Of a stretch of DNA of 64,000 bases, positions 37,361 to 60,581 are shown in pieces. This DNA is from a phage. The position numbers were made by a program, and so were the translations under genes. How positions within the stretch are numbered: the stretch's first letter is position 1; every line of letters begins with the position of its first letter. The notes under the pieces were generated by a model that searched no databases, was not told the origin of the DNA, and worked only from the letters and a program-made list of their open reading frames with translations. Where the stretch lies: assembly GCA_036253055.1 (NCBI GenBank), contig GCA_036253055.1_4124.1. The stretch is one strand, 5' to 3'.

Positions 37361-37361
37361 T

Positions 37362-45745: not shown

Positions 45746-45796
45746 GGTATAATCCCCAATATAAGCGGCCTAAATCGACCGCTAACGATGTTTTGA

Positions 45797-46146: not shown

Positions 46147-46470
46147 TTAAAGATCTTTTTTGCGTTTAACATTCTGTACAGTACAATGCAACGGGATATT
46201 AAGATCATTGCACAAACGATAGAGGGAGGTTTCAACAGTATCAAGCCCGTCTACTGATTCCTTTAAGAGTGATACCGCCGTTTGTTGATATGCATCCTCA
46301 TAGCCATAAGTAAATGATTCAACCGCCAGATCATTCAAGCCGTTATCCAGTTCAACGCTTACATGACAAGAATGATAAGTATTGCCATATGAATCAGTCC
46401 AACGTTTACCGTCAACATTGATTGCATGGATTGCAGCCAGGGAAACGGTGTTGATGATAGTTTTAGCCAT
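46147..46470 (-). CDS. Hypothetical protein (107 aa); paralog of 39086-39409
   Basis: SD AAGGAA; class-2 promoter upstream. Confidence 0.6.
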   Translation of the reverse strand: MAKTIINTVSLAAIHAINVDGKRWTDSYGNTYHSCHVSVELDNGLNDLAVESFTYGYEDAYQQTAVSLLKESVDGLDTVETSLYRLCNDLNIPLHCTVQNVKRKKDL

Positions 46471-46561
46471 TTTAGTATTCCTTAAATTAATATGTGTCGT
46501 CTTGATAAAATCTATTATGCCAGTACTATCAAACTATGTCAATAGTACTGTGATAATATTT

Positions 46562-46774
46562 TTACTTACTTTCTTTCGCTGCTTTATATGTTGCCACTGC
46601 CATAACCACATCAGCACGAACAAAGTTTTTAACCGTGTCACTGTAATAATTGATCGCATCATCTATATCTGCGAACGTCCGATACATACCGCACCAAGAT
46701 ACTTTATAACCTTCTTTCACTTCTACCAGTTTAACGATAGTCTTGTTAACTTTGATTTTAGTAATGATAGCCAT
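46562..46774 (-). CDS. MAII-family small protein (70 aa)
   Basis: Start moved to ATG 46774 (MAIITKIK, SD TGAGGAAAC); track start MVLP is the cassette hairpin. Confidence 0.55.
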   Translation of the reverse strand: MAIITKIKVNKTIVKLVEVKEGYKVSWCGMYRTFADIDDAINYYSDTVKNFVRADVVMAVATYKAAKESK

Positions 46775-46794
46775 TTTAGTTTCCTCATTATCAG

Positions 46795-46852
46795 GGAGAA
46801 CCATTTCTCCCCTTGATGTAATGTATTATACTTTATTCGATTTACTTTGCAA
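46795..46852 (-). promoter_or_regulatory. Class-1 cassette (TTGCAA-N16-TATAAT + hairpin)
   Basis: Read on minus strand. Confidence 0.6.
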
Positions 46853-46861
46853 GTACTTTTT

Positions 46862-47089
46862 TTAATTTAATTCATCCAGGCAAAGGATACGCTCAACGCC
46901 CAAATCAGTTAAACTAATCGACGGCACTTGATAGGTTTCAATGTATGCTACACTTGCCCACTGACCGAACTCATTAACGGCCCAGGTATTCATTGCATTT
47001 TGCAATTCCGCACCTGCCTTGTTAGTAATGACTGCAACTACTTGTTCGTTGCCAGTAGTACCAGATACGCGAGTAATGATAATAGCCAT
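46862..47089 (-). CDS. MAII-family small protein (75 aa)
   Basis: Start moved to ATG 47089 (MAIIITRV, SD AAAGGAA). Confidence 0.55.
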   Translation of the reverse strand: MAIIITRVSGTTGNEQVVAVITNKAGAELQNAMNTWAVNEFGQWASVAYIETYQVPSISLTDLGVERILCLDELN

Positions 47090-47112
47090 TGTTTTGATTC
47101 CTTTGATTTGGA

Positions 47113-47172
47113 AGGAGAACCGTTTCCCCCTCTCGATGTAAAACATTATACGCTAATCTCTTAATCGTGCAA
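47113..47172 (-). promoter_or_regulatory. Class-1 cassette (TTGCAC-N16-TATAAT + hairpin)
   Basis: Read on minus strand. Confidence 0.55.
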
Positions 47173-47216
47173 GTACTTTTTATTACTTTTTGCAAAATAC
47201 TTTAAACGCTCTCAAT

Positions 47217-47307
47217 CGCATTCTAACGACCTTAACGCCACCAGCTAGGGCGATGTATCAGATAATCAGTTTAATGCGTTAGAATCGATTCTAGGCGGTG
47301 CTGGTGG
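47217..47307. repeat. Interleaved inverted repeats (CGCATTCTAACG / CGTTAGAATCG and CCACCAGC / GCTGGTGG)
   Basis: Two inverted-repeat pairs arranged A-B...A'-B' between a terminator and the next promoter. Confidence 0.5.
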
Positions 47308-47324
47308 ACTGGAATACTACAGAC

Positions 47325-47352
47325 ACAAAAAAGCCCACTGTTTAAGGTGGGC
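47325..47352 (-). terminator. Intrinsic terminator (GCCCACcttaaacaGTGGGC + T6)
   Basis: Hairpin then TTTTTT on minus strand, 20 nt after stop at 47375. Confidence 0.7.
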
Positions 47353-47374
47353 TAGTGATTCAGTACTTTAATTG

Positions 47375-47857
47375 TTATGCTTCAACTTTGCGATGAGCTT
47401 CGATCCATTCCTCGCGAGTCATACCGCTTTCTTTGATAGCGTCCAGTACTACCGCAATGCAGTTACCGCGTACAGGAATCAAATGTTCTTCCCCGTTATC
47501 AAGGACAACAGTAACACGTTCTTGAATCCATTTTTTAGGCTTAGATTCCGGCTTATCTTCACCGTACTTAACCGCCAGGGCTTTATGTGCCATTTCAATA
47601 ACCACTTCCAGATCTAAACCAGACACCGCCGCCTGAATACTTTCTATTGTTGCTTGCAGTTCTGCTTCACGGGCTTTTTTCTGTTCTTCCAGTTCTGCTA
47701 CCTTTTTGGCTTGTAGTTCTTTCGCTTCACTGTAAGCAATGTTAAAATTGTTGCGTACTGCTTTCATGGTATCATTATCCAGGTCAGCCAGCAATTCAGC
47801 AGCAATCACAGTATCGTTAGAAATCAGTGCTTTCAGAAATGATTTTACATTAGCCAT
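47375..47857 (-). CDS. Hypothetical coiled-coil protein (160 aa)
   Basis: Start moved to ATG 47857 (MANVKSF, SD GAGGAT); Lys/Glu-rich heptad-like segment; strong terminator downstream. Confidence 0.6.
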   Translation of the reverse strand: MANVKSFLKALISNDTVIAAELLADLDNDTMKAVRNNFNIAYSEAKELQAKKVAELEEQKKAREAELQATIESIQAAVSGLDLEVVIEMAHKALAVKYGEDKPESKPKKWIQERVTVVLDNGEEHLIPVRGNCIAVVLDAIKESGMTREEWIEAHRKVEA

Positions 47858-48049
47858 TTTATAAATCCTCAATTAAAGTTTAAGTTAGTTTATCAAAGTT
47901 TGTTTGACGTGTCCAGTTTTTCATTCGACTTACTGGCGGTCTACTTAATGTTCCCCGTCTTGATGTAATACATTCTACGCTTTTCCCTGGTAATGTCAAC
48001 TACTTTTTTAAAACTATTTTCAAAGTATACCAGTACTACGATACTACAA

Positions 48050-48078
48050 AAACAAAAAAGCCCACTGTATAAGTGGGC
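48050..48078 (-). terminator. Intrinsic terminator (GCCCACttatacaGTGGGC + T6)
   Basis: Near-duplicate of terminator at 47325; follows stop at 48097. Confidence 0.7.
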
Positions 48079-48096
48079 TAGTGATTCAGTACTATA

Positions 48097-48396
48097 TTAT
48101 AAACAATTAATTACGCCAGTGAATGTAACTTTCTCTGTATCCATTACAGTAACCGAACCGCGTTTACTTTTTGCATCGTAATAGATGGTCGTGCTACCCT
48201 GATCATCTTCTTCATGGTACGGGCCATTAGCAAACATTGCAGGGGCCAGTTCCAGGGATTTGGTAACGATCTCAGCCGTTTCCTCGTTAGTCATTGCAAC
48301 AGTGCACTGAATGAATTTTTCTTTCTGTACATCAACGGAAGCGTTAACAGCGAAAGAGGAAACAGATAAAGCCAGGGCGATGATTGCAGTTTTCAT
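48097..48396 (-). CDS. Putative secreted/periplasmic small protein (99 aa)
   Basis: N-terminal signal-peptide-like MKTAIIALALSVSSFAVNA; SD AAAGGAT; own promoter and terminator. Confidence 0.6.
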   Translation of the reverse strand: MKTAIIALALSVSSFAVNASVDVQKEKFIQCTVAMTNEETAEIVTKSLELAPAMFANGPYHEEDDQGSTTIYYDAKSKRGSVTVMDTEKVTFTGVINCL

Positions 48397-48418
48397 TTGT
48401 ATATCCTTTGTTAGTACT

Positions 48419-48474
48419 AGGGAGTATTCCCGATTAGATGTAAAACATTATACGCGTTTAAAAACTATTATCAA
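48419..48474 (-). promoter_or_regulatory. Class-1 cassette (TTGATA-N16-TATAAT + GTTTTACAT)
   Basis: Read on minus strand; weak hairpin. Confidence 0.5.
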
Positions 48475-48507
48475 GTACTTTAATATAAAAGTATTTGAAA
48501 AAAAGTC

Positions 48508-48640
48508 TTGACAACTGCATCCAGTACTGGCATAATATCTACATAAAGACGAGATAGTCACTAACCCACAGGGTGCATAGATCCGTCTATTAAATGATTC
48601 AGTACTGCAAAATAAAGGGGATCGTTTGATCCCCCTGATT
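48508..48640 (+). ncRNA. Candidate plus-strand small RNA (class-2 promoter + CACTAACCCACAGGGTGCA element + terminator hairpin)
   Basis: TTGACA 48508-13, CATAAT 48531-36, element 48559-77, hairpin GGGGATCgtttGATCCCC 48617-34; no ORF; opposite to all local genes. Confidence 0.35.
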
Positions 48641-48641
48641 A

Positions 48642-48863
48642 TTACTTAGTAAGATATAAACAAAAATCACCTTTCTTTGATACTCCGCAAGTGTAACGCG
48701 ATGAATAGTTAGAAACGTCTTGTACTTCTGCAATGACGAGCGTATCATCATTTAACTCATCGCAAAAACATACTGCGGGATCTTCTACGCCGATATTGTC
48801 GGCATGTTCCCGCATAGATTTAACCAGTGCTTCAAGCTGGGAAAGAGTAGTGATATTAGCCAT
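48642..48863 (-). CDS. Hypothetical protein (73 aa)
   Basis: SD AAGGAG; cassette upstream. Confidence 0.6.
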   Translation of the reverse strand: MANITTLSQLEALVKSMREHADNIGVEDPAVCFCDELNDDTLVIAEVQDVSNYSSRYTCGVSKKGDFCLYLTK

Positions 48864-48882
48864 TGTAAAACTCCTTATTAGT

Positions 48883-48941
48883 GGGGAGAACCATTTCCCC
48901 CTTGATGTAAACTATTATATAGTACTGGAAACTATTTGCAA
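48883..48941 (-). promoter_or_regulatory. Class-1 cassette (TTGCAA-N16-TATAAT + hairpin)
   Basis: Read on minus strand. Confidence 0.6.
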
Positions 48942-48947
48942 GTACTT

Positions 48948-49136
48948 TTAATTAAATTCCATAAAATCATTTTCAACGTGCACAACAATCTGATTATTTT
49001 TAAAGGACGCAGAAAACTCTATACAATCATAAACCGCTTTTTCTGTTACCAGACTATGAGCACCAATCGGATTAATTGGGGATTGAATTGTTTCAATCTC
49101 GTTACCCTGCTCATTTACAATTAAAATATTAAACAT
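48948..49136 (-). CDS. Hypothetical protein (62 aa)
   Basis: SD AGGAG; promoter TTGCAA-N16-TATAAT. Confidence 0.55.
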   Translation of the reverse strand: MFNILIVNEQGNEIETIQSPINPIGAHSLVTEKAVYDCIEFSASFKNNQIVVHVENDFMEFN

Positions 49137-49210
49137 TGTCGTTACTCCTGGATAGTGTTAACTCGATGTAAACAATTATACAGTACTGGAAACTAATTGC
49201 AAGTACTTTT

Positions 49211-49414
49211 TTAATTTAATTGCTTTAAAACAAAATCAAAGACACCACGCACATCATTGATCATCGCCTGGCGGTTAGCAGGTAACGCATCAGGATCGCC
49301 ACTATCCCAGGCATTAATGAAGCCACTTAAATCATGGAATACTTTATTCCGTAACCCGATCAACTGCAATTCTTTTTCTTCAAGCTCTTTGATACGTTCA
49401 ATTAAATCACTCAT
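49211..49414 (-). CDS. Hypothetical protein (67 aa)
   Basis: Start moved to ATG 49414 (MSDLIERIK, SD GAGGAT). Confidence 0.5.
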   Translation of the reverse strand: MSDLIERIKELEEKELQLIGLRNKVFHDLSGFINAWDSGDPDALPANRQAMINDVRGVFDFVLKQLN

Positions 49415-49431
49415 TAGATAATCCTCAGTAC

Positions 49432-49716
49432 TCAATTGTAAGATCCACATCGTTCGCAGTAGTGTTCATCTTCCTCATCTTCTACCACTTGCCCGATGAA
49501 ATGATCTACTTTCGCTTTCAGGTTATTATAATCGTTTTCTACTTCCTGTAAACGTTCCTGGTAGTATTCCAGGGCTTCAACAAATGCAGCTTCCTCTGAT
49601 TTTGCTTGCATCGATAAATTCATCCCGCGTGTTTCATCATATAGCCAAAAACCATCGGTGCATTCAGTTATAGATAACGTGTTAGTCAGTACTTTACTAT
49701 TAATTACTTTGCTCAT
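49432..49716 (-). CDS. Hypothetical protein (94 aa), Cys-containing C-terminus
   Basis: SD GAGGAT; C-terminal HYCERCGSYN. Confidence 0.55.
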   Translation of the reverse strand: MSKVINSKVLTNTLSITECTDGFWLYDETRGMNLSMQAKSEEAAFVEALEYYQERLQEVENDYNNLKAKVDHFIGQVVEDEEDEHYCERCGSYN

Positions 49717-49735
49717 TAGATAATCCTCATTAAAG

Positions 49736-49794
49736 GCGGGAACTATTCCCGCTCTCGATATAAAGTATTATACGTTAATCTAATTACTTTGCAA
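49736..49794 (-). promoter_or_regulatory. Class-1 cassette (TTGCAA-N16-TATAAT + hairpin GCGGGAAtagTTCCCGC)
   Basis: Read on minus strand. Confidence 0.6.
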
Positions 49795-49801
49795 GTACTT
49801 T

Positions 49802-50039
49802 TTAGTGCTTTTTATAAAACATCTCAGCGGTGATATTTTTACCCGTTGGTTGTACTTTATCCAGGATCTTTTGGTGTGCACTACGCCCGAAAGAATAAGA
49901 ACCGTAAACCGTTAGCCAGTAGTCGCCATTTTGGTTTACATGTACCGCACAATAAGGAACGCCCCGCGAATCGTCACCAATGAAGTGTGATACTGTACCC
50001 GTTACGTTTGGCGTTGTAGTTTTGATTTGTTCGATCATT
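49802..50039 (-). CDS. Hypothetical protein (78 aa)
   Basis: Start moved to ATG 50039 (MIEQIK, SD AGGAG) downstream of hairpin GGCGGGGAAtggTTCCCGCC. Confidence 0.5.
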
Positions 50040-50096
50040 TCTCTTACTCCTGGGATATAGGCGGGAACCATTCCCCGCCATTGATTCAGTACTGAA

Positions 50097-50708
50097 TTAA
50101 TATTCGATAGATTCTACTACATCGTCGATAACGTTAAATTGATATTCGTTACCCTCAATCAGTCCTACAATGTTTTCAGTAGTAAACTGGTCTTCATAAG
50201 CATTTTCTAAATCACGGTACAGCTTACAAGATAATTCTCGGATAGTATCAGTCAGTAAGTTTTCCAGATCCTCAGCCAATGCAGCCTGTTTTACAGTTAA
50301 ATCAGTGTAGCGAGTATCAACGCAACCGCCTACCGTGTTTTCGTGAGCGTAGCGTGATTGGGAACGTTCTACACTCATTTCCAAATCATCTTCGTTCAAC
50401 AGGTGACGGATGGAACGATATTTCGTTAACGCCTTAACCTTGCGTAAAAACTTCTCAGCGTCAACGTGGTCAGTACTGATTGATGCACCGTCACCTTGCG
50501 ACCAAAAACCACTGTATTGCAATTCAGCTTCATCTATGCCGTATTCTGGCAGTACTGTTTCTTTATAGTATTCCAGTACTGATTCAGCAAAGAAATTATC
50601 CTCACTTGCACGTTCCCGATCCCGAACCAGTTCGATAGCCGCCGCTTGTTGTTCTGCGTTCAGTTCAGAAAAATCCATAACGAAAGTAGTAGTAGTGATA
50701 GTTTTCAT
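50097..50708 (-). CDS. Hypothetical acidic protein (203 aa)
   Basis: SD TGAGGGT; tandem promoters with structured element X copy 2 between them. Confidence 0.65.
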   Translation of the reverse strand: MKTITTTTFVMDFSELNAEQQAAAIELVRDRERASEDNFFAESVLEYYKETVLPEYGIDEAELQYSGFWSQGDGASISTDHVDAEKFLRKVKALTKYRSIRHLLNEDDLEMSVERSQSRYAHENTVGGCVDTRYTDLTVKQAALAEDLENLLTDTIRELSCKLYRDLENAYEDQFTTENIVGLIEGNEYQFNVIDDVVESIEY

Positions 50709-50778
50709 TTTGTAACCCTCATTCAGTAGTTGATGTAAGTATTATACGCTTTTAAAAACAATTGTCAAACTATTTTAT

Positions 50779-50886
50779 CAGGGGAGTTTTTCGTGTGCCT
50801 TACTCCTGGGCTACTTAACGGGAAGTTACTTATTTCGTTCCCCGTCCTGATGTAAAACATTATACGCCTTTAAACATAGTTTGCAA
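50779..50886 (-). ncRNA. Candidate structured leader/sRNA element X (copy 2)
   Basis: About 90% identical to 39968-40074; frame-disrupting differences argue against a peptide. Confidence 0.35.
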
Positions 50887-50931
50887 GTACTTTTTGAAAA
50901 TAGTTTTTATCTCTTTCATATAGATACATTC

Positions 50932-51001
50932 CCGCACCCTATGGGCTATCGCCTTGTGTCCGGCTTGTAAGTATTATCTCACTAAGCCGGATAACGGTCA
51001 A
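50932..51001 (-). promoter_or_regulatory. Class-2-like promoter (TTGACC..TAATAC) + conserved CCCATAGGGTGCGGG element + hairpin CCGGCTT-N17-AAGCCGG
   Basis: Same promoter-to-element arrangement as 42498-42567. Confidence 0.4.
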
Positions 51002-51007
51002 GTACTT

Positions 51008-51274
51008 TTATTCAAGTACTGCAATCTTTTTAGTACTGTACACAGTAACGCGGTTGCCCTTGCGGTCGTGCTTTATTTCTACCACGCGACGCGATACACT
51101 ATCAGGACGCTTTAAAGCAGATAGCCAGTACTGAATTGATCGGGCTGTACTTTGCTTTACTACGGCCCAACGTTTACCACGTTCAGATTGTACGCCCATA
51201 TCTTTAAACGTTGCCCCGTCCTGGCGTGCTGCAATCCGAGCTAGTTCACGCGTCGCAAAATATGTAATAGTCAT
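51008..51274 (-). CDS. Hypothetical protein (88 aa); paralog of 38591-38986
   Basis: Start moved to ATG 51274 (MTITYFATREL, SD AGGGGT). Confidence 0.55.
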   Translation of the reverse strand: MTITYFATRELARIAARQDGATFKDMGVQSERGKRWAVVKQSTARSIQYWLSALKRPDSVSRRVVEIKHDRKGNRVTVYSTKKIAVLE

Positions 51275-51357
51275 GCTGTTACCCCTATCGTTGATGTACA
51301 AAAAGAACTTTATTATAAAGTACTATCACCGTGCAATAGTACTTTTAATCTATTCTC

Positions 51358-51597
51358 TTACATTCCAACCATCGCCGCACGGATCGCAGTAGTACTATAC
51401 TTAAAGCCGTCCGGTGTTTTATCTTGTCCAGTCTGTTCTAAAAATAGCATCATATGACGGGCCGCATCATTACGATTAGTGTTAGCGGCAATAAAGTCCT
51501 GGGCCAACCGGTATAATGATTCGTCGTTATTAATCCAAAGGCTTACATTCCATTGAGTTTTGTTTTTGTGTCCTAAGAACATTTTTGATTTAGCCAT
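51358..51597 (-). CDS. Hypothetical protein (79 aa)
   Basis: Start moved to ATG 51597 (MAKSKMF, SD AAGAGGAT). Confidence 0.55.
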   Translation of the reverse strand: MAKSKMFLGHKNKTQWNVSLWINNDESLYRLAQDFIAANTNRNDAARHMMLFLEQTGQDKTPDGFKYSTTAIRAAMVGM

Positions 51598-51618
51598 TTT
51601 TAAATCCTCTTTATTATA

Positions 51619-51677
51619 GTGGGGAACTATTCCCCACCTGATGTAAAACATTATACGCTTTTAAACTTAGTTTGCAA
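51619..51677 (-). promoter_or_regulatory. Class-1 cassette (TTGCAA-N16-TATAAT + hairpin GTGGGGAAtagTTCCCCAC)
   Basis: Read on minus strand. Confidence 0.65.
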
Positions 51678-51691
51678 GTACTTTATTAAAC

Positions 51692-52054
51692 TTATTCGTA
51701 AATCTTGCCACTGTCAGCCCATACCAGGAAACGAGGCATATTATCCCATGCATCTTGTTTTAAGTTTAAGCCGTGTAATACTTCTGTACTTTCCATTCCT
51801 GGTACTGGCTTGCTATACACTGCAAACATTTCGCCCATGTACTGATAAGCCATCGTTAAATCAGTCTGGATCATCTTATGGATCATTGCATCCAGCATTG
51901 CAGTAGCGGCATACTGTTCACGCTTAAGCGGCAGCATTGCAATCAATTCCCGATAAGCTGCAATGTGAATCCGTACAGTCTCAGCGGGAAGATCTTTCAT
52001 CTCTTCACGGAAAGAAACCAGGTTAAGCATGATAGTATTGATTTGAGTCGCCAT
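51692..52054 (-). CDS. Hypothetical protein (120 aa)
   Basis: Start moved to ATG 52054 (MATQINT); first gene of the middle module. Confidence 0.55.
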   Translation of the reverse strand: MATQINTIMLNLVSFREEMKDLPAETVRIHIAAYRELIAMLPLKREQYAATAMLDAMIHKMIQTDLTMAYQYMGEMFAVYSKPVPGMESTEVLHGLNLKQDAWDNMPRFLVWADSGKIYE

Positions 52055-52077
52055 CGTTTTAATCTCTTTTAAAGTGT

Positions 52078-52137
52078 AGCGGGAAGTGTTCCCGCTCTCG
52101 ATGTAAAACATTCTACACCTTTCCCAATACTTTGCAA
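52078..52137 (-). promoter_or_regulatory. Class-1 cassette (TTGCAA-N16-TAGAAT + hairpin AGCGGGAAcacTTCCCGCT)
   Basis: Read on minus strand; most upstream cassette of the module. Confidence 0.6.
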
Positions 52138-52879
52138 GTACTTTCTACAAATACTTTTAAAATAGTTTTCTTTCTATATAGGGGAACTATCTTTCAGTAC
52201 TGCAACCATCCAGGGGAACTATCTTTCTATATAGTAGTACTATGATTCAGTACTGAATCAATCCACCAAATCATCCCGATACCCCGTAAAACGGCCTCAG
52301 ACGCATTCTAACGCATTAATACACCTAAGCTATACATTTGCACCATTCCAATCATTCCAGGGCTTTACAGGCCGTTTAAACGCGTTAAATTATTTTCAAT
52401 TATTTTGTTTTTAGCTATTGACTCAGTACTAAAAAAGCGTATAATTACTACATAGACGCGAGAAAGCGGATACCCCAGGGGGTGGGAAGATCCGTCCAAA
52501 ATTCAAGATATAAAAAAAGGATACACTCCCGCACCCTAGCAGGTTAACGCACTTTCTCAGTACTGAATTATAGTACCATAGTCCGGCCCAGGATGGCAAG
52601 CAAATTAATTAAAACTTTTTTCATCCAGGGTATTGCTTTATTTTTCCAGTACTGTATAATAGTTCCATCAAGTCGAGAAAGACTCAAGCCCACCGGGTGC
52701 ATAGTTACGCCCAAAATTCAGTACTGAAAAAATTTTTAAAAATATCCGTCCAGGCCGTTGACATTGCCCCCAGTTTATAAGATAATGATTCCAGATTCAG
52801 AAAAATCTAACTCCAGATACTGCGGGGAAACTATCCCCACGCGGTAGGGGAACTATTGGAAAAAACAAAATAAAATTTT

Positions 52880-53040
52880 GATTTAGCCGTCTATACTTCC
52901 AGACGTGTAACCATCTAGCCGTTTAGCCGTCCAAACGTCTAGCAATCCAGCCATCCAGAAATCTAGCCGTTTAGCCGTCTAGATGGATAGCCATCTTTAC
53001 TTCCAGACTTCTGGAGGGCTAGACATATCTACGTCCAAAA
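52880..53040. repeat. GC-richer block of short direct repeats (TAGCCGTTTAGCCGTC x2, CCATCCAG, TCCAGAC) with small hairpins
   Basis: Visible direct repeats; AGATGGatagCCATCT and CCAGActTCTGG palindromes. Confidence 0.5.
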
Positions 53041-53193
53041 TCCACCCAGGGTAACTACGCCCAAAATCCGTCAGTACTATACCATAGATCTATCTTTTGA
53101 AAGGGAGTATTCAGTACTGTCATCATAGCCCTCACTATGTTACCCTAGGAGGATGAAGACTATCATGTAGTACTGAATACTGTTAGAGGGAAT

Positions 53194-53213
53194 CCACCAG
53201 CACAAGCTGGTGG
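53194..53213. repeat. Perfect palindrome CCACCAGCacaaGCTGGTGG
   Basis: 8-bp arms; same CCACCAGC motif recurs at 47.24 kb, 35.30 kb and 40.12 kb. Confidence 0.6.
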
Positions 53214-53700
53214 CATAATGCTTTAGATTAAAATCAGTACTGACACCATTCTGTTAATATCAGTACTGTTATTACGATTTTCATATGAGGTTCAAAAAGA
53301 TGTACCACCACAGGAGGAACTATCTTTTCTGTACTGTCTCACGACAGGAGGTAGAGTAAATGAATTGTTCGCAGCAACTCATCACCCTATGTAGAACATT
53401 ATACAGTACTGAATCATAATGTCAATAGCTTTCTTTCATTATTCAGTACTGAAATCGTATAATCTGTATCGCTACAAAACTCATTATATCCCACAAATCC
53501 TATATGTCCCAACGTAAATTTCAACTTTCGAAGATCCAACTTTTATTTCATAGGTACTCCAAAATTTTTAGGATCGAGATTTAGGATGGAGTACTAACCA
53601 ACTTTTTGCTGGAGCCTCAAGGGGTAATTGAATTTTACCCCGAAGGGTAAAAGGGTAATTGAAATTAAGGTGAAAGTAATAATTCAGTACTAATCATTGC

Positions 53701-53729
53701 GTGATTACTTTTGATTACATTTGATGTAA
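53701..53729. repeat. Iteron cluster 1: TGATTAC-like repeats at exact 10-bp spacing (x3)
   Basis: TGATTACTTT TGATTACATT TGATGTAATT. Confidence 0.55.
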
Positions 53730-53867
53730 TTTGCAAAATGGAAAAGGAGCTTGGAAACTACAAAGTACGGCAGACTTCCTCTGCCTACTTAGTGGCATAT
53801 CAGTACTGCTACGTTCTTGATTAAACGTGAACATTCCTGTACTCTAGTACTCACTACTGATCACTAC

Positions 53868-53929
53868 AGTGATTATAAATGATTACTTAAATGTTTATAT
53901 ATGATTACTTATGACTACCTATGATTACG
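53868..53929. repeat. Iteron cluster 2: ATGATTAC(TT) repeats (x5, 10/22-bp spacing)
   Basis: gtgATTATaaATGATTACTT...ATGATTACTTATGACTACCTATGATTACgg. Confidence 0.55.
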
Positions 53930-53978
53930 GGGTTTAGCCTGGGGAGAATCCTAGTGATCGCATTTGTCCAGGCTGAAT

Positions 53979-54001
53979 TTTAACATATGCAACATATGTT
54001 A
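53979..54001. repeat. Perfect 10-bp-arm palindrome TTAACATATGcaaCATATGTTAA
   Basis: Directly downstream of the last family-C gene; possible operator or terminator. Confidence 0.55.
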
Positions 54002-54044
54002 AAGCCTGTATAATGCTTCCACTACGGAGCTTCCCCTAGCTATA

Positions 54045-54236
54045 TTACTTCCTATATATAATCATTAAGATATAGTAGTACTGATTATACTGTACATTCT
54101 CTTTAATATTATAAGGGTCTATAGCAATCTCGGTACATCTGTTAAATGCATATCTATTAAATGCCAGTGGAATTATAGATCTAATCCATACTTGTTCATT
54201 TTCTTTTAGTTTACTTATATAGAAGTTTTTATACAT
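54045..54236 (-). CDS. Family-C paralog (~60 aa)
   Basis: MYKNFYISKL...YYYILMIIYRK. Confidence 0.55.
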   Translation of the reverse strand: MYKNFYISKLKENEQVWIRSIIPLAFNRYAFNRCTEIAIDPYNIKENVQYNQYYYILMIIYRK

Positions 54237-54251
54237 AGTATTCTCTATTAA

Positions 54252-54434
54252 TTAATATGATAGTACTAGTGTTAGTACTGAGCACAATTGTTCTTTGTAG
54301 TTCTTAGGGTATATAGAATCTTTTATGCACTCATTGAAGTGCCATAGGTATAATCTTGGGTCGCATTCTTTATATATTCTTACGGGGACGAATGTTAGTT
54401 TTCTTATATAGAATTCTTTATGTTCTTTATTCAT
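54252..54434 (-). CDS. Family-C paralog
   Basis: MNKEHKEFYIRKL...LTLVLSY. Confidence 0.55.
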   Translation of the reverse strand: MNKEHKEFYIRKLTFVPVRIYKECDPRLYLWHFNECIKDSIYPKNYKEQLCSVLTLVLSY

Positions 54435-54439
54435 ATTAG

Positions 54440-54625
54440 TTAGTGTCTGTATATAAGTAATAGTAAGAATACGTACTGCACATCTTCATCTTTAGTATTG
54501 AGTACTGTACGTATTGCGTCATTAAACAAGAATATAGTACTTGGGTCATGAGAATTTAAAGGGGTTCTGGGTACGGCATGTTTGTAGTTCCCTTTAACAA
54601 ATTGTGTGTAGTATTCTCTATGCAT
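54440..54625 (-). CDS. Family-C paralog
   Basis: MHREYYTQF...FLLLLIYRH. Confidence 0.6.
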   Translation of the reverse strand: MHREYYTQFVKGNYKHAVPRTPLNSHDPSTIFLFNDAIRTVLNTKDEDVQYVFLLLLIYRH

Positions 54626-54626
54626 A

Positions 54627-54812
54627 TTAGTACCTATATATTAGGGCGAGAATGTAGTACAATTCATATGGAATGTAATTTGGGGTGATCGCACACTGTG
54701 TATGGTAAATGAATTGTTCGGTATTTTTCTTATCCTTGATATCTATTGGGATTAGTGGTATAAGCATTTGGGAGTTTAGATCCAGATGGCTTAAGTAGAA
54801 TTCTTTATGCAT
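54627..54812 (-). CDS. Family-C paralog
   Basis: MHKEFYLSHL...YILALIYRY. Confidence 0.6.
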   Translation of the reverse strand: MHKEFYLSHLDLNSQMLIPLIPIDIKDKKNTEQFIYHTQCAITPNYIPYELYYILALIYRY

Positions 54813-54821
54813 ATTGTTCTC

Positions 54822-55010
54822 TTAGAATACGAAAGCTAGGTACAGGGTATGATACAGTACTCGATGGTAGCTGTCAAAATCTAGTATACATGCTTTAGTG
54901 CACATAGTAAAATACACTTTATCATTTTGTGCATTGATACCGCGAGGTTTATCTAATAGATTAGTTCTGAGGTACATTGGGAAATATTTTGTGTAGTATT
55001 CTTTATGCAT
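54822..55010 (-). CDS. Family-C paralog
   Basis: Start moved to internal ATG (MHKEYYTKYF); ...YHTLYLAFVF. Confidence 0.5.
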   Translation of the reverse strand: MHKEYYTKYFPMYLRTNLLDKPRGINAQNDKVYFTMCTKACILDFDSYHRVLYHTLYLAFVF

Positions 55011-55011
55011 G

Positions 55012-55194
55012 TTAGTACCTGAATATAAGTAGGATAGTGTTATATAGCTGGTCATAACTACTACTATTTTCTATACTTCGTTCTATGCAGTTATTGAATC
55101 CCAGTACTGCCAAATCGTTATCCAGAGGGACTTTATATCTGGCGTAGTGTTCAAAAATGCTGGGGAGAAATTGTGTGTAGTATTCTTTGTGCAT
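55012..55194 (-). CDS. Family-C paralog
   Basis: MHKEYYTQFLP...NTILLIFRY. Confidence 0.6.
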   Translation of the reverse strand: MHKEYYTQFLPSIFEHYARYKVPLDNDLAVLGFNNCIERSIENSSSYDQLYNTILLIFRY

Positions 55195-55195
55195 A

Positions 55196-55381
55196 TTAGT
55201 ACCTATATATTAGTAAAAGGATGTGATACAGTACTCGATTATAGTCTTCAATATATATCGAGGATTTAGTGCACTGAATGAAGTAGTCTTTTTCGTAGTT
55301 TTTTTCTATACCCAATGGTTCTGTTGGTACAAGGTGTTGGAGATACATTGGGAGTTTCTCTATGTAGTATTCTTTATGCAT
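55196..55381 (-). CDS. Family-C paralog
   Basis: MHKEYYIEKLPMYL...HILLLIYRY. Confidence 0.6.
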   Translation of the reverse strand: MHKEYYIEKLPMYLQHLVPTEPLGIEKNYEKDYFIQCTKSSIYIEDYNRVLYHILLLIYRY

Positions 55382-55382
55382 G

Positions 55383-55571
55383 TTAGTACTTAAATGTTAG
55401 GGCGAGGATGTAATACAGTTTATATGTTCTATCCTCATACATTAGGGTGTACTTAGTACATTCCTGGAACATTGTTTTTGCGTCATCTTTTATGCCCAAT
55501 GCAACGTTTGGTATATGGCTCTGTAGATACATTGGGAGTTTCTCTATGTAGTATTCTTTGTGGTTATTCAT
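55383..55571 (-). CDS. Family-C paralog
   Basis: MNNHKEYYIEKLPMYL...YILALTFKY. Confidence 0.6.
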   Translation of the reverse strand: MNNHKEYYIEKLPMYLQSHIPNVALGIKDDAKTMFQECTKYTLMYEDRTYKLYYILALTFKY

Positions 55572-55572
55572 A

Positions 55573-55755
55573 TTAGTACCTGAATGTTAGCATTACTACG
55601 TAGTACAGCATATATGGATTATCATCGTATATGAGCGTGTACTTAGTACATTGTTGGAACATTATCTTTGCGTGATCTTTTATTCCTATTGGTTCTGTTG
55701 GTATATGGTGCTGGAGATGCATAGGGATTTTATCCCTGTAGTATTCTTTGTGCAT
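55573..55755 (-). CDS. Family-C paralog
   Basis: MHKEYYRDKIPMHL...YVVMLTFRY. Confidence 0.6.
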   Translation of the reverse strand: MHKEYYRDKIPMHLQHHIPTEPIGIKDHAKIMFQQCTKYTLIYDDNPYMLYYVVMLTFRY

Positions 55756-55765
55756 GTTGTTCTCT

Positions 55766-55945
55766 TTAGTACTTATATATTAGGAGTAAAATGTTATAGT
55801 ACTGGTTCATTGCGTCATCATTTTCTATAGCACGTTTTACGCTATTCATGTAGTTAGATCGAGCGGCACGAGTTATGAGAAGAACTTTGTATGCAGCAAA
55901 GTATTTTTGCTGCACGGGTAGTTTAGAGATATAGTATTCTTTATA
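55766..55945 (-). CDS. Family-C paralog
   Basis: Start moved to internal ATG (MYKEYYISKLP); ...YNILLLIYKY. Confidence 0.5.
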   Translation of the reverse strand, partial: YKEYYISKLPVQQKYFAAYKVLLITRAARSNYMNSVKRAIENDDAMNQYYNILLLIYKY

Positions 55946-56612
55946 CATAGTTTGTAATATACGTAATGAGGTGATGCATTTTCTTATTAGTACTGATAAT
56001 TTCCTGTACATGTTTTGTCAGATTGTACGCGTTTTTATAGAGTACTGGATTATCGATTACAGTACTGTACATGAATAGTTCTTCTTCCTGTAGTTCTTTG
56101 TGTTCTAGTTCTTTGAGGAAATCTACAATTGATTTAGTTTCTTCTGTACGTTGTGCTTGCCAGAAGTGCATATTCTCGTGTACTTTTTTTGAACCCATAT
56201 TGTATATGCCACCCATTTGGAATTGTGCTGTATTGACATCGTGGGAGGTGTTACAATTCCCGAAGAAGTATGTATTCCCGAAGTATAGCATTAAAGTGCA
56301 CGGGGTATTATCCAACTGCATATGGATGATGAAGGATGCGTTCTTTAGTACCTTTGTGCTCGTATTAGTACTCAATACTTTTAAATCAGTATTATAGATA
56401 TTCATATAATGAACAGCTATATTATTTTTTTTCATATACAAATCAAGGTTCTTTGATACGTTAACACCATTTGTACTGGATTTTTCCTTTTTATTTCGTT
56501 TCTTTAGTACATTCGGGTGATACGTATATGCAGATGTAACTGATTCTGCCTGAATACTATTGAGGTACTTAAAGTGCTTAAGGTATTGTTTGCTGTGTGC
56601 ATTAAGTTTCAT
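55941..56612 (-). CDS. Larger protein (223 aa) embedded in the family-C array, with family-A-like C-terminal core
   Basis: C-terminal EEELFMYSTVIDNPVLY resembles the family-A core (FM for FQ); SD AAAGGAAACC. Confidence 0.6.
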   Translation of the reverse strand: MKLNAHSKQYLKHFKYLNSIQAESVTSAYTYHPNVLKKRNKKEKSSTNGVNVSKNLDLYMKKNNIAVHYMNIYNTDLKVLSTNTSTKVLKNASFIIHMQLDNTPCTLMLYFGNTYFFGNCNTSHDVNTAQFQMGGIYNMGSKKVHENMHFWQAQRTEETKSIVDFLKELEHKELQEEELFMYSTVIDNPVLYKNAYNLTKHVQEIISTNKKMHHLITYITNYV

Positions 56613-56622
56613 TTGGTTTCCT

Positions 56623-56802
56623 TTATATAGATGCCAGGGCGAGGATTTCCCTGTAGGGATTATCTTGTGTTAGTACAGCATAAATGCAGCTATTGAGATT
56701 AATATTTTTAGTACTTTTTGTTCCTAGGTTGTAGTAATCAACGAAGGTGTCGTACATGAAACGGTCTTTTATGGTTATACGTTCTATATAGAATTGTTGC
56801 AT
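56623..56802 (-). CDS. Family-C-like paralog (59 aa)
   Basis: Not in track; MQQFYIERITIKDRF...EILALASI. Confidence 0.45.
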   Translation of the reverse strand: MQQFYIERITIKDRFMYDTFVDYYNLGTKSTKNINLNSCIYAVLTQDNPYREILALASI

Positions 56803-56810
56803 AGTATTCC

Positions 56811-56993
56811 TTAAATAGCGATTAGTTTCATTACTTCTCTGTATGTGTACTTTTCGTTTTGTGCATCTCTTGTGACGACATATAGGAAGGTGTGTTTATC
56901 TTTTTTGTTCCCGCAATTGTAGAAAATATTGAACTTATTGAAGTTGAATCTTTCGGCGTGTTGTAGTTTAGTTAAATAGAATTCTATGTTCAT
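56811..56993 (-). CDS. Family-C-like paralog (divergent)
   Basis: MNIEFYLTKL...YREVMKLIAI. Confidence 0.5.
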   Translation of the reverse strand: MNIEFYLTKLQHAERFNFNKFNIFYNCGNKKDKHTFLYVVTRDAQNEKYTYREVMKLIAI

Positions 56994-57001
56994 TTTCTTC
57001 C

Positions 57002-57187
57002 TTACATTTCAATAAGTTTAAGTACTGCTCGGTACGTGTACTTAGTTGTTAGTGCTTCTTTAATAGAAATACAGAAGTAATGTTGTTTGTCTCTTATACT
57101 GCCGCGTTTGTAGTACCACACATGGGAGTTGTGACTGTACTTGTCTCTGTCGGATAGTTGTTGGTAGTAGTAGCTTATATGATTCAT
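57002..57187 (-). CDS. Family-C-like paralog (divergent)
   Basis: ...TKYTYRAVLKLIEM. Confidence 0.5.
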   Translation of the reverse strand: MNHISYYYQQLSDRDKYSHNSHVWYYKRGSIRDKQHYFCISIKEALTTKYTYRAVLKLIEM

Positions 57188-57239
57188 TATAATGTAATTA
57201 GCCTTACTATATTAAAGTACTCGGTCCCTGGTGTACCTT

Positions 57240-57434
57240 TTAGAACTTAAAGATGAGGTTCAGGATAGAGCGGTACTTAGTTGCAGGGAACGTATGTTCT
57301 ATTGCATCACGTGTCTCCATCCTGAAATCGTAATTGTAATATAGATTATTCTTTCTCATAGGTCGTGCTAAAGAGAATGATAGCTGTTCTTGCTTGTGTA
57401 GTTTACTACAATAGAAATCTTTATGATTATTCAT
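57240..57434 (-). CDS. Family-C paralog
   Basis: MNNHKDFYCSKL...YRSILNLIFKF. Confidence 0.55.
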   Translation of the reverse strand: MNNHKDFYCSKLHKQEQLSFSLARPMRKNNLYYNYDFRMETRDAIEHTFPATKYRSILNLIFKF

Positions 57435-57636
57435 AGAAATATATTAGTCCTATTAAACCTGAGTACTGAATATTTTTGTTATTGCATTCGATTGCTTCTA
57501 GAGTACTACGTATACAATTATTAAAGCAATCTCTGGCGTGTGGTGTATCTATACTTAAAGGTGATACACTCCTTAGAAACAATTGTTCTTCGTTGCTAAG
57601 GTATTTGGTGTAGAATTCTTTATGTTCAGTATTCAT
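57427..57636 (-). CDS. Family-C paralog
   Basis: MNTEHKEFYTKYL...YSGLIGLIYFYE. Confidence 0.55.
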   Translation of the reverse strand: MNTEHKEFYTKYLSNEEQLFLRSVSPLSIDTPHARDCFNNCIRSTLEAIECNNKNIQYSGLIGLIYFYE

Positions 57637-57637
57637 A

Positions 57638-57847
57638 TTAGTACTCGATTAATAGTGTTAAGATGAAATAGTACTGCATAGACTCGTTACCTTCAAGGAA
57701 ATTCCTTATGAGGTTATTTCTGACTGAGTTAAGCAGAAGTGCCGAACGTTTTGCATTTGCAAGTATAATTTGTTGATGCTCTATGCTATTCTGTTCACCT
57801 TTTGACAGAGCACATAGGTAGTACTGCATAATTTGTTCTTGGGTCAT
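57638..57847 (-). CDS. Family-C-like paralog
   Basis: ...MQYYFILTLLIEY. Confidence 0.5.
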   Translation of the reverse strand: MTQEQIMQYYLCALSKGEQNSIEHQQIILANAKRSALLLNSVRNNLIRNFLEGNESMQYYFILTLLIEY

Positions 57848-58089
57848 ATAGATGCCAGTACTAAAAGGTTAATGAATCGTTTACTTTCGTCAGGGTTTTG
57901 AAGTCCCTCAAAGATGTCCTCTATAAAGCAATTCAACATAAGTGCATTTGTTGGGGTAGTACTTTTTTTGAGGGTATTGATTGCACAGAATTTTGAGAGG
58001 AAGAATGCGAAGTCTTCTGCGTTCATGTAGCTCATATAGTTCTTAGTACTTTGGCTAAGTGCTTGGTAGTGATCTATTACATTGTTCAT
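57844..58089 (-). CDS. Family-C-like protein (81 aa), first gene of array
   Basis: SD AGGAG; consensus promoter directly upstream. Confidence 0.55.
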   Translation of the reverse strand: MNNVIDHYQALSQSTKNYMSYMNAEDFAFFLSKFCAINTLKKSTTPTNALMLNCFIEDIFEGLQNPDESKRFINLLVLASI

Positions 58090-58112
58090 GAATTTCTCCT
58101 TATATTTTTTCT

Positions 58113-58142
58113 ATTATAAATGAGTCCAGAAAGGATGTCAAG
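58113..58142 (-). promoter_or_regulatory. Consensus sigma70 promoter (TTGACA-N17-TATAAT) heading the family-C array
   Basis: Read on minus strand; followed by SD AGGAG and ATG 58089. Confidence 0.65.
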
Positions 58143-58190
58143 GGTTTTCTTTTTGTGGTAAATATGATATAACAAATAAAGGAGGGAAAT

Positions 58191-59393
58191 ATGTTACCTT
58201 TTGGAAGAATGATTAAGTACGCAAATATTGCACCAGGTCCAGAACCTGTAGAGTTCTCAGATGTTTTACAACAACATTATACAAACTGTATGTATCTACA
58301 TAACCCAACTAATACTTTATATGGTTATGGTAGTAATAACTTTTATCAATTTGGTCTTGGGAATTCAGCAGCAGTTTCGTCATTTACAGTACTTGCAAGG
58401 AACTGTGCAGCCTTTTGGCTTGGTGTTCAAGGTTCATTGATGATTGATTTGGATAATAAAATATACTACACTGGATCGGTTGGTGCATTTTCTGATTATG
58501 GAGATGCAACACCTGTTAATGGTTTTTTGACAACATGGACTGATGTTACTGTTGCATTTAATAAAATTGGTGTTATGGCTAATATGATCAAGAGTGTATA
58601 TATAGGTGAAAGTACTAGAATATTATTAACCGATGGTAGAGTAATTGCGTGTGGAAGAAATACTAATGGTGAATGTGGCTCTGGTAATAAAAATTCCATC
58701 CCTACACTCACAGTTATGACTAATATGGGTGAAGTTACACATATGGCATGTTCATTACAAGGAACGCACTATATCAAATCAAATAAAGATGCATGGTTTT
58801 GTGGTAAGGATAACTTTGGTGAAAGTGGATGTGGTGGTAGTTCTGTTGTATATTTGAACAAATTCGTGATTAGTAATGTAGAACATATTAGTACTACATA
58901 CGATGTTACTTGGTGGTTTACTACTGGTGGGTCTGTATATTATAGCGGGGCTAACAGTACTGGACAAGCTGGTAATGGTACGACTACATCGGTAAATCAG
59001 CTAACACCAATTAGGAACACATCGGTCACGGTTGATGTAAGTAAGTACAGTACTTTTATTTGTCCAAGTAATATGGGAAATGCATCAATTGGTGCACCTA
59101 TGGCACAATACGCACCATATGTTAGAAGTAGTGGTGCTAACTCATATGGTCAAGAAGGTAATGGAACTAATACATTAGTTAGAACTTGGAATATTTTTAA
59201 TCTTAGTGCAATAAGTGGTGGTTATGACAATGTTCTTATGGCATCTAAAGATTGGAGCAGAACCATAATAATTACTAAAGATTATAAATTATATGCATGT
59301 GGTGGCTGGAATGGAAATGGTGGTAGATTGCCAGATGGCACTTATAGTATTACTACACTAACATTAATGCCAACGCAGTTATGGCAACAATAG
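58191..59393 (+). CDS. RCC1-like beta-propeller repeat protein, paralog 1 (400 aa)
   Basis: Repeated G-x-N-x-x-G-Q/E-x-G-x-G blade signatures; conserved N-terminus MLPFGRMIKYANIAPG; SD AAAGGAGGG. Confidence 0.7.
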   Translation: MLPFGRMIKYANIAPGPEPVEFSDVLQQHYTNCMYLHNPTNTLYGYGSNNFYQFGLGNSAAVSSFTVLARNCAAFWLGVQGSLMIDLDNKIYYTGSVGAFSDYGDATPVNGFLTTWTDVTVAFNKIGVMANMIKSVYIGESTRILLTDGRVIACGRNTNGECGSGNKNSIPTLTVMTNMGEVTHMACSLQGTHYIKSNKDAWFCGKDNFGESGCGGSSVVYLNKFVISNVEHISTTYDVTWWFTTGGSVYYSGANSTGQAGNGTTTSVNQLTPIRNTSVTVDVSKYSTFICPSNMGNASIGAPMAQYAPYVRSSGANSYGQEGNGTNTLVRTWNIFNLSAISGGYDNVLMASKDWSRTIIITKDYKLYACGGWNGNGGRLPDGTYSITTLTLMPTQLWQQ

Positions 59394-59401
59394 GAGGGAA
59401 T

Positions 59402-60511
59402 ATGTTACCTTTTGGAAGAATGATTAGGTATGGAAATATTGTCCCTGGTCCTAAAAAAATAATTAAAGTTGGTGCTTCTACCCAAGGCCAATTCTTATTG
59501 ACTGATTCACATGATTTATATTACATAGGTAGAAATCAAGGTGGTGAATCTGGAAATGGTAATACCAACACGGTATCTTCATGGATATTAGTAAGTGCAG
59601 ATGTTTCTAATTTTTTCGTGGGTGATCGTACACTTGTTATTATTAAAAATGATAATACGATATGGACATCAGGTCAAACGTACTGGTTCTCATCTTCTAC
59701 AACTACTTCTTACAGTACTGTATTAGTTGAAAGAACTAATTGGTTTACCAATGCTATACCAGTAAGTGAAATTGCTAATATTGTATGTACAAATGGTTTA
59801 ATATTTGTACTTAGCACTAATTCAGTACTCTATGGTGCAGGAGATAATGGATATCGTGGTTCTTTGGGTATTGGTTCCTCATCAATTTACACATTAACTC
59901 AATGTGCTACGAACGTTCGTAAAGTAATGACCAATGCGAATGATAGTATGTATCTTACATTAGATAATAAGCTATATAGTTCTGGATGGAATAGTAGTGG
60001 GCAGCATGGTACGGGGAACCAAACACAAATTAACACTTGGGGATTGCGTAGTTCTGGTGTAATCGATGCAGCCATTGGTGGTAATGCATTAAATTACTAT
60101 AATGGTACATCATATTTCGTATGTGGTCAAACTCCAAACTTTCTTAGTTCAGGTACGACTACATTCCGTGCAGTTCCTGTAAGTACTTTGCCTAATAGTT
60201 CTCCATTGTTTATGACGAATTCACCTGCCTTAAATACTGCTACACAAATGGTAATTACTAGTACATATCAGAAGGGTGTTGGGGCGAACCGTGGTTTGGG
60301 ATTAAACAATTCTCAAACTGGTGCTATATATAGTGCTACCAATTTACAATTACCCGTTGAAGTTAGTGAGATTAGGGATGTTCTTTTTAGTGATGGTTTG
60401 ACATCGATATTAACCAAAAATGGAGATGTGTATAGTACTGGATCGTATTACGCCATTCCAGGTGCAATCGAGGATGTTGCAGTCTTTACTAAAATTGATT
60501 TACCAAAATAA
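59402..60511 (+). CDS. RCC1-like repeat protein, paralog 2
   Basis: Start at conserved MLPFGRMIRYGNIVPG (SD TAGGAGGGAA overlapping upstream stop); blade motifs. Confidence 0.7.
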   Translation: MLPFGRMIRYGNIVPGPKKIIKVGASTQGQFLLTDSHDLYYIGRNQGGESGNGNTNTVSSWILVSADVSNFFVGDRTLVIIKNDNTIWTSGQTYWFSSSTTTSYSTVLVERTNWFTNAIPVSEIANIVCTNGLIFVLSTNSVLYGAGDNGYRGSLGIGSSSIYTLTQCATNVRKVMTNANDSMYLTLDNKLYSSGWNSSGQHGTGNQTQINTWGLRSSGVIDAAIGGNALNYYNGTSYFVCGQTPNFLSSGTTTFRAVPVSTLPNSSPLFMTNSPALNTATQMVITSTYQKGVGANRGLGLNNSQTGAIYSATNLQLPVEVSEIRDVLFSDGLTSILTKNGDVYSTGSYYAIPGAIEDVAVFTKIDLPK

Positions 60512-60517
60512 CATAAT

Positions 60518-60546
60518 GCCAGTACACTGTACTGGCTTTCTTATTT
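60518..60546 (+). terminator. Intrinsic terminator (GCCAGTACactGTACTGGC + TTTCTTATTT)
   Basis: Perfect 8-bp stem and T-rich tail after stop of paralog 2. Confidence 0.7.
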
Positions 60547-60581
60547 GTATTAAATATAGTATAACAAATAAAGGAGGGAAT

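Follow-up and report, generated by a model that had tools for sequence, protein, structure and literature searches.

A tandem array of small paralogous genes has been characterized in the present study, and several findings have been obtained. The array lies in a 64,000-nucleotide stretch of phage DNA (GenBank assembly GCA_036253055.1, contig GCA_036253055.1_4124.1; hereafter the window), where 18 back-to-back open reading frames (ORFs), designated u01 to u18, occupy positions 54045-58089. First, most of these ORFs encode members of a single family of about 60 amino acids (aa). Second, the units are genuine protein genes under selection, and related phages carry the same array with a different repertoire of units. 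Third, the array stands behind a promoter of the host type, just outside a long terminal repeat. We hold this anatomy and evolution of the array with high confidence. Herein, we further propose, at about even odds (a probability near 0.5 for the statement as a whole), that the array is an early operon, transcribed by the host polymerase, of diversified mini-proteins for host interaction or counter-defence.

A family of 60-aa proteins

Adjacent same-strand genes with significant mutual similarity were identified by all-against-all BLASTP and by hidden Markov models (HMMs) from which some ORFs had been left out. The model built from u09-u18 recovers the left-out u03 (E 1e-14) and u04 (E 1.5e-8), and in a profile scan eight of the ten ORFs examined (seven of the eight family-type ones) match phrog_11711, to which no function is assigned, end to end over profile positions 1-62 with E values from 7e-9 to 2e-28 (u03, 1.3e-13; u04, 5e-22). 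On these grounds the 12 ORFs u03, u04 and u09-u18 are certain members of one family. For u02 and u05-u07, membership is probable and comes from profile-profile comparison. The sub-family u05-u07 (mutual BLASTP 1e-5 to 1e-10) aligns with the main family over its full length (hhalign P=4e-4, 52 columns) and is tied to it by a BLASTP match between u04 and u06 near 1e-3, while the u02-type proteins, with orthologs added, also align over their full length (hhalign probability 86%, P=5e-6, 60 columns; u02 against the family HMM, E 0.009-0.03). Membership of u01 is doubtful, as u01-type proteins are weakly matched to the u02 type (hhalign P=6e-4, 61 columns) and to the family (3e-3). In the profile scan, u01, u02 and u06 gave no match to phrog_11711 and are joined to the family through profile-profile comparison only. 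The preliminary description of this DNA, made from the letters alone, had counted about 17 paralogs in tandem, and the array is indeed of that kind, a fair count being 12 certain, four probable and one doubtful.

The terminal motifs that the same description had singled out, (M)HKE(Y/F)Y at the N-terminus and L.LIYRY at the C-terminus, proved to be conserved. Tyr6 is invariant in all 65 sequences aligned; K3, F34 and L57 are at least 90% conserved among the 12 window copies, and L57 alone reaches 90% across the 65. The conserved positions (Y5, Y6, L10, P22, L23, F34, C37, I42, Y51, L55, L57, I58 and Y59) correspond to a hydrophobic core, whereas positions 11-21, 24-33 and 43-50 vary among paralogs. 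An AlphaFold2 model of u12, built on the 65-sequence alignment, predicts with confidence (pLDDT 90.9, pTM 0.75) a small helical fold with helices at residues 3-7, 12-15, 28-43 and 47-60. A fold search with this model found no known structural relatives, and neither sequence nor fold resembled anything characterized, including anti-defence and host-takeover families.

Organization of the array

Consecutive ORFs are separated by -8 to +15 nt, the sole exception being a 52-nt gap ahead of u05 (Table 1). Separate Shine-Dalgarno sequences precede u01 (AAGGAG) and each of u05-u08 (AAGGA). Among the other genes, u11-u14 and u16 start one base past the preceding stop, in the form AGGTACTAAnATG, and u02, u04 and u09 overlap the gene before them. 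The AGG or AAG of the penultimate Arg or Lys codon stands 7-9 nt ahead of the next ATG, which is the distance of a Shine-Dalgarno sequence. Ribosomes may move from gene to gene through these 'TAAnATG' and overlapping junctions along one polycistronic message.

Divergence along the array is uneven, as previously described, although it is not a monotonic gradient; rather, there are two zones split by the 223-aa gene u08, with divergent units proximal to the promoter and units near the consensus distal to it. The youngest copies, u10-u12, lie in the middle of the array, share 70-73% DNA identity and are the only units for which a tandem repeat is detectable at the DNA level (period 190, 2.3 copies, 76% matches).

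The 223-aa gene (phrog_29152) is not a member of the 60-aa family. The preliminary description had seen in it the core of another family of the window and, from this, recombination between arrays. A short motif, L.EEELF.YSTV.D (EEELFMYSTVIDN, residues 176-188), is indeed common to u08 and 13 ORFs of a 105-215-aa family at 1-27 kb, but the likeness ends there, since the hhalign match (P=1.5e-5) covers 18-37 columns only, the P value applying to 18, and the best BLASTP E value is 0.047. Recombination between arrays found no support, as u08 has no significant DNA similarity to the rest of the window (best E 0.035 over 26-29 nt). The gene is confined to the same phages, evolves with a ratio of nonsynonymous to synonymous change (dN/dS) of 0.46, and occupies the same place in the middle of the array in all relatives (identity 41-96%), including the very divergent array of phage JNE01 (41%), which points to an old and conserved resident rather than a recent recombinant. 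Its AlphaFold model was unusable (pLDDT 40).

Distribution and turnover of units

The region 54000-58200 matches 36 public genomes, all from the genus Asteriusvirus, whose members are jumbo phages infecting Escherichia or Salmonella (121Q, PBECO4, G17, Sharanji and others). The source phage is itself an Asteriusvirus, of the 121Q/PBECO4/G17 group of E. coli jumbo phages. The best DNA matches, 121Q and G17, are 97% identical over 87-88% of the query, and no genome covers it fully. The arrays are recorded as hypothetical proteins, gp249-gp265 in 121Q and G17_00054-00069 in G17. Grouped at 90% identity, the matches of a word-indexed search of 5.8 billion proteins formed 67 clusters; when 1.84 billion representatives (50% identity) were scanned in full with the HMM, 30 matches emerged, of which 29 are genuine (41-69 aa) and one (P0087, 531 aa) is an unrelated repeat protein and hence spurious. 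Matches across both searches were otherwise 41-98 aa long, mostly 59-70 aa, and the three divergent ones that were looked up (P0088, P0085 and P0089) sit in arrays of the same layout, including the gene of about 220 aa. Within the window, an HMM search found no member outside the array. The family is thus confined to this genus and this locus.

Relatives carry 16-24 ORFs per array in the following order: u01 and u02 types, u03 and u04, three to six units of the u05-u07 type, the 223-aa gene, and eight to 13 core units. The u05-u07 type has grown to five or six copies in WPEC5, E9.1 and ELP-22, and compared with 121Q the window has one extra unit, u11. In comparisons of two phages, units with 100% identity adjoin units with 25-60%. 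For the JNE01 array, identity is 30-60% throughout, with the exception of u01 and u02 (81-91%); this array also contains a truncated 44-aa unit and an unannotated unit-sized gap. The u01 of the window is 81% identical to that of JNE01 versus 25-26% to those of 121Q and G17. Positions 57600-58200, covering u01, u02 and their flank, are of the JNE01/Turkey5 type (89-90% DNA identity; about 26-56% protein identity to 121Q), whereas the rest is of the 121Q/G17 type (97%), which makes the locus a mosaic in the source phage. Of the 47 points at which DNA homology blocks shared by the window and six relatives end, 32 lie within 30 nt of a start codon, versus 26% expected (binomial p=3e-9, the ends being not fully independent). 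When paralogs are compared with one another, their junctions show 84-96% identity over 44-66 nt, and their gene bodies cannot be aligned. The simplest reading of these comparisons is that whole units are gained, lost and exchanged by homologous recombination at the conserved junctions.

Tandem duplication has been proposed as a route of genome expansion in 121Q and phage G (Hua et al. 2017, PMC5646251). That proposal concerns the same phage group and the same process, the tandem duplication of small genes, although the genes meant there are most likely those of the 75-aa family (about 30 members; 12.3-33.6 kb in the window), which is not detectably related to the 60-aa family. We found no array-level description of the present locus in the literature. 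Duplication in 121Q is thus already in print and the genes were already public as hypothetical proteins; the cassette-like evolution, the confident fold and the position at the edge of the terminal repeat are added here.

Selection on the encoded proteins

Conservation of the reading frames across related genomes, on which the preliminary description had made its claim depend, is found: the frames are kept, with the same lengths, in 121Q, G17, WPEC5, E9.1, JNE01 and ELP-22. The pooled dN/dS over 56 ortholog pairs is 0.35. When the termini and the variable middle were compared in a split test, dN/dS was equal in both, with no stronger selection in the middle, and synonymous divergence (pS) was 0.063 at the termini versus 0.073 in the middle. 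On this sequence evidence, the array units are protein genes under selection. They are variable between paralogs, often less than 30% identical while keeping one confident fold, and are kept between orthologs, as would be expected if every unit maintains a specificity of its own.

Selection on the proteins argues against two other explanations. One is that the array is genomic filler, in which tandem duplicates with little or no function of their own were kept after the capsid had enlarged. The duplication proposed for 121Q and phage G, the free variation in copy number, the several other paralog arrays of the window, and the truncated unit and gap of JNE01 are consistent with filler. However, the dN/dS, the intact ORFs in six good genomes, the old and diverged paralogs of a single fold, and the ribosome-binding arrangement of each unit are not what filler would be expected to retain, and we regard this explanation as unlikely. 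The other holds that the junction of about 45 nt is itself a conserved DNA or RNA signal for recombination, processing or coupling, with the protein termini as a by-product. The junctions are the best conserved DNA of the array, breakpoints cluster there, the AGG or AAG keeps its distance from the next ATG, and GTAC is enriched in the array to 15 per kb. Nevertheless, F34, C37, I42, P22 and L23 are conserved beyond the junction, the terminal motifs pack as helices in the confident model, pS at the termini equals that of the middle, and u05-u07 keep the signature of the fold with different junctions and their own AAGGA. A pure junction signal is accordingly very improbable.

Promoter, position and timing of expression

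The consensus sigma-70 promoter that had been described ahead of the array was confirmed at its place, with 12 of 12 matches to TTGACA-N17-TATAAT. The -35 hexamer and the Shine-Dalgarno sequence of u01 are invariant in the alignment of seven phages, while the -10 hexamer is TATAAT in the window only and TACTAT or TACAAT (four or five of six matches) in the six relatives. Strong sigma-70-like sites number 32 on the minus strand of the window versus six on the plus strand and fall mostly at 34.9-53.4 kb. The candidate promoter within u14 resembles in layout those of the terminal repeat, with a spacer one base longer.

The G17 record repeats bases 1-20668 at 350150-370817, a direct terminal repeat of 20,668 bp that maps to about 33112-53779 of the window. 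The window consequently starts in the unique region of the right end, crosses the repeat as a single collapsed copy and continues into the unique region of the left end, with G+C of about 0.30-0.33 rising to 0.36-0.41 across it. The array therefore begins about 270 bp inward of the inner edge of the repeat (about 53779), just outside it, and its transcription is directed toward that edge. The authors of a study on CBB, a related phage, found RpoD-like promoters gathered at short hypothetical ORFs, which they regarded as early genes (PMC5259590). It is fairly probable that the operon is transcribed early, by unmodified host RNA polymerase at the very start of infection.

The array always adjoins, and diverges from, an array of RCC1-like paralogs, of which at least four (376-433 aa) lie at 58191-62941 of the window. 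The RCC1-like homologs gp549 and gp551 are among the 62 proteins listed for the virion of phAPEC6, from which their neighbour gp542c, a member of the 60-aa family, is absent (PMC7247149). We infer that the operon is early and non-structural. A role of the small proteins in virion assembly or with the RCC1-like neighbours, for example as chaperones or adaptors for the beta-propellers, would suit the constant neighbourhood of two multi-copy arrays and the presence of two RCC1-like proteins in the virion, but it has poor chances, as the promoter is of the host type and not a late-type motif, promoter type and AGTACT density are common to the array and the small-gene region of the terminal repeat, no family member is in the virion proteome, and no co-variation in copy number was seen between the two arrays.

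A proposed repertoire of host-interaction proteins

Herein, we propose that the array is one polycistronic operon of an Asteriusvirus jumbo phage, in which the paralogs would be early proteins of a non-structural kind, every one of them directed at its own host or defence target. The array would thereby constitute a repertoire with which the phage takes over the host or counters its defences, and unequal homologous recombination at the junctions would reshuffle this repertoire. The counter-defence reading is suggested because of the promoter type, the position, the small size and non-structural status of the proteins, their restriction to one genus, their fixed scaffold with diversified surfaces, and a turnover that is cassette-like. 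A function in host interaction or counter-defence is, taken by itself, tentative and falls short of an even chance. More doubtful still is its most specific form, a cassette library of mini-binders in which one stable 60-aa scaffold carries many surfaces, units neutralize different host defence or takeover targets, and phages swap, gain and lose units by homologous recombination at the junctions, the library standing at the edge of the terminal repeat and being the first to be switched on.

Several points weigh against the proposed operon of early host-interaction proteins. The -10 hexamer matches the consensus at just four of six positions (TACTAT) in most relatives, and the term early is based on promoter type and position only. 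Small proteins easily escape mass spectrometry of virions. In addition, amino-acid change is not in excess in the variable middle, so that orthologs give no sign of an arms race in progress. A further alternative is that the proteins act in competition between phages, in superinfection exclusion, or in a toxin-like shut-off of the host rather than in counter-defence. Small proteins behind a host-type early promoter, in one genus and with a repertoire that varies between co-circulating phages, would be in keeping with such roles, and nothing in these features separates them from counter-defence. However, the proteins contain no membrane-spanning segments, the C-terminal hydrophobic stretch of about 12 residues being too short for one, and they show no similarity to known exclusion proteins. 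We consider these roles quite unlikely.

The proposed repertoire has likenesses among known viruses. Poxviruses change the copy number of genes through gene 'accordions', and African swine fever virus carries multigene families at its genome ends. As in the present array, copies vary near the end of the genome, and there is no sequence similarity. The Bacillus phage SPO1 and the coliphage T5 carry clusters of small host-takeover or pre-early genes in their terminal repeats. These clusters, like that of CBB, resemble the array in that strong host-type promoters precede numerous short ORFs within or beside a long direct terminal repeat, the genes being presumed the first to be expressed; they differ in that their genes are mostly unrelated single genes with their own promoter and terminator, whereas the array is one long operon of paralogs just outside the repeat. 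In phage T4, segmental amplification of the small counter-defence gene tifA has been reported (10.1101/2022.04.14.488369) and is a precedent for such a change in copy number. In both cases the virus is large and lytic, and recombination alters how many copies of a small accessory gene it carries, but the tifA repeats are fresh and identical, whereas the copies in the array are old and diverged, and the likeness is one of process and layout, not of sequence.

Neighbouring features of the window

The coordinates of the array and its associated elements are collected in Table 1.

Table 1. Genes of the array and associated sequence elements (positions in the window)
Feature	Position	Strand	Remarks
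Array u01-u18	54045-58089	minus	18 back-to-back ORFs, 17 of 59-81 aa and one of 223 aa
Sigma-70-type promoter	58113-58141	minus	TTGACA 58141-58136, 17-nt spacer, TATAAT 58118-58113
Shine-Dalgarno sequence of u01	58096-58101	minus	AAGGAG, read in the sequence
u01	57844-58089	minus	81 aa; very divergent, doubtful family member
u02	57638-57847	minus	69 aa; divergent family member (probable)
u03	57427-57636	minus	69 aa; family member
u04	57240-57434	minus	64 aa; family member; 8-nt overlap with u03
Weak promoter-like site	57186-57215	minus	TTAATA-N18-TATAAT, 10/12 matches, in the 52-nt gap before u05; predicted
u05	57002-57187	minus	sub-family u05-u07, 59-61 aa (probable members)
u06	56811-56993	minus	sub-family u05-u07
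u07	56623-56802	minus	sub-family u05-u07
u08	55941-56612	minus	223 aa; not a family member
u09-u18	54045-55948	minus	ten core family members, 60-63 aa
u09	55766-55948	minus	core member
u10	55573-55755	minus	core member
u11	55383-55571	minus	core member
u12	55196-55381	minus	core member
u13	55012-55194	minus	core member
u14	54822-55010	minus	core member
Possible internal promoter in u14	54849-54877	minus	TTGACA-N10-AGTACTG-TATCAT, 11/12 matches; predicted
u15	54627-54812	minus	core member
u16	54440-54625	minus	core member
u17	54252-54434	minus	core member
u18	54045-54236	minus	core member
Non-coding element downstream of u18	53900-54040	minus	block 53900-53985 within a long predicted stem-loop; RNA fold z=-4.7
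Hairpin GGCAGAGGAAGTCTGCC	53769-53785	minus	at the inferred inner edge of the terminal repeat (about 53779)

Downstream of the last gene, the block 53900-53985 is kept in all relatives and is near-invariant even in JNE01, whereas the outer stem of the predicted stem-loop is not conserved. The stem-loop was considered as a terminator and rejected, since there is no U-tract and only its 3' half is conserved; no Rfam family was found in the window. The block belongs to a non-coding stretch of about 1.4 kb (52600-54045) between the last gene of the repeat and the array, with an 8/24-bp tandem repeat at 52884-52983 and repeated GTAATCA words at about 53870-53930. This stretch is a candidate packaging or replication signal.

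Other paralogous families occupy the left part of the window. A loose superfamily of 105-215 aa extends over 24-27910, with sub-families of 115 aa and 150 aa and the motif EEE(L/F)FQ.ST(V/I).D, which stands about 50 residues ahead of the C-terminus. Another family, of about 30 small proteins (63-90 aa), lies in tandem at 12271-33551, together with one ORF of 269 aa at 25992-26801. The 60-aa family showed no relation to the 75-aa, 115-aa and 150-aa families of the window (hhalign P 0.11-0.88, the value for the 75-aa family being 0.11). A first impression that u03 aligns with the region of the EEELF motif was therefore dropped.

The hexamer AGTACT is by far the most over-represented in the window, with 256 copies versus 47 expected under an order-2 Markov model (z=30); for CAGTACTG, there are 52 occurrences versus 2.8 expected. 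AGTACT is densest over 33112-58089, with 6.1-6.4 copies per kb in the terminal repeat and the array versus 2.6-2.75 per kb elsewhere; its density in non-coding DNA is threefold higher, and it is present in all reading frames. We found no paper mentioning this over-representation. The promoters of the terminal repeat (34900-53430, minus strand) share the layout TTGACA-N9-AGTACTG-TATAAT, AGTACT standing in the spacer of 17 of the 32 strong sites, and after several of them comes a 5' hairpin of the type GGGGAGAATAGTTCTCCCC. The AGTACTG element might serve as an operator or be contacted by the polymerase. An island of 7.57 kb (18063-25635) contains no AGTACT versus 25.5 expected (P about 9e-12), as was also noted for 29101-33750. 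On its plus strand the same island has TGTACT 43 times, and AGTACA is absent, so that the word is strand-specific there and reads AGTACA on the coding strand. The AGTACT-free island is also present in 121Q and G17 and is therefore natural. In addition, GCGC is absent from the 64 kb (56 expected from base composition) and CTAG is depleted (80 versus 202).

Implications

Jumbo phages of this group have been isolated for therapy against pathogenic Escherichia coli and Salmonella, and more than 80% of their genes are without a known role. The array is among the most variable loci of these phages. If the units set which strains or defences are overcome, the unit repertoire would help to predict host range, and the array would be a source of small, stable and easily expressed inhibitors of bacterial proteins. 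If the library of mini-binders is real, it would be to phages what the terminal multigene families are to large eukaryotic DNA viruses. The array also provides a clean natural case for the birth and shuffling of viral gene families.

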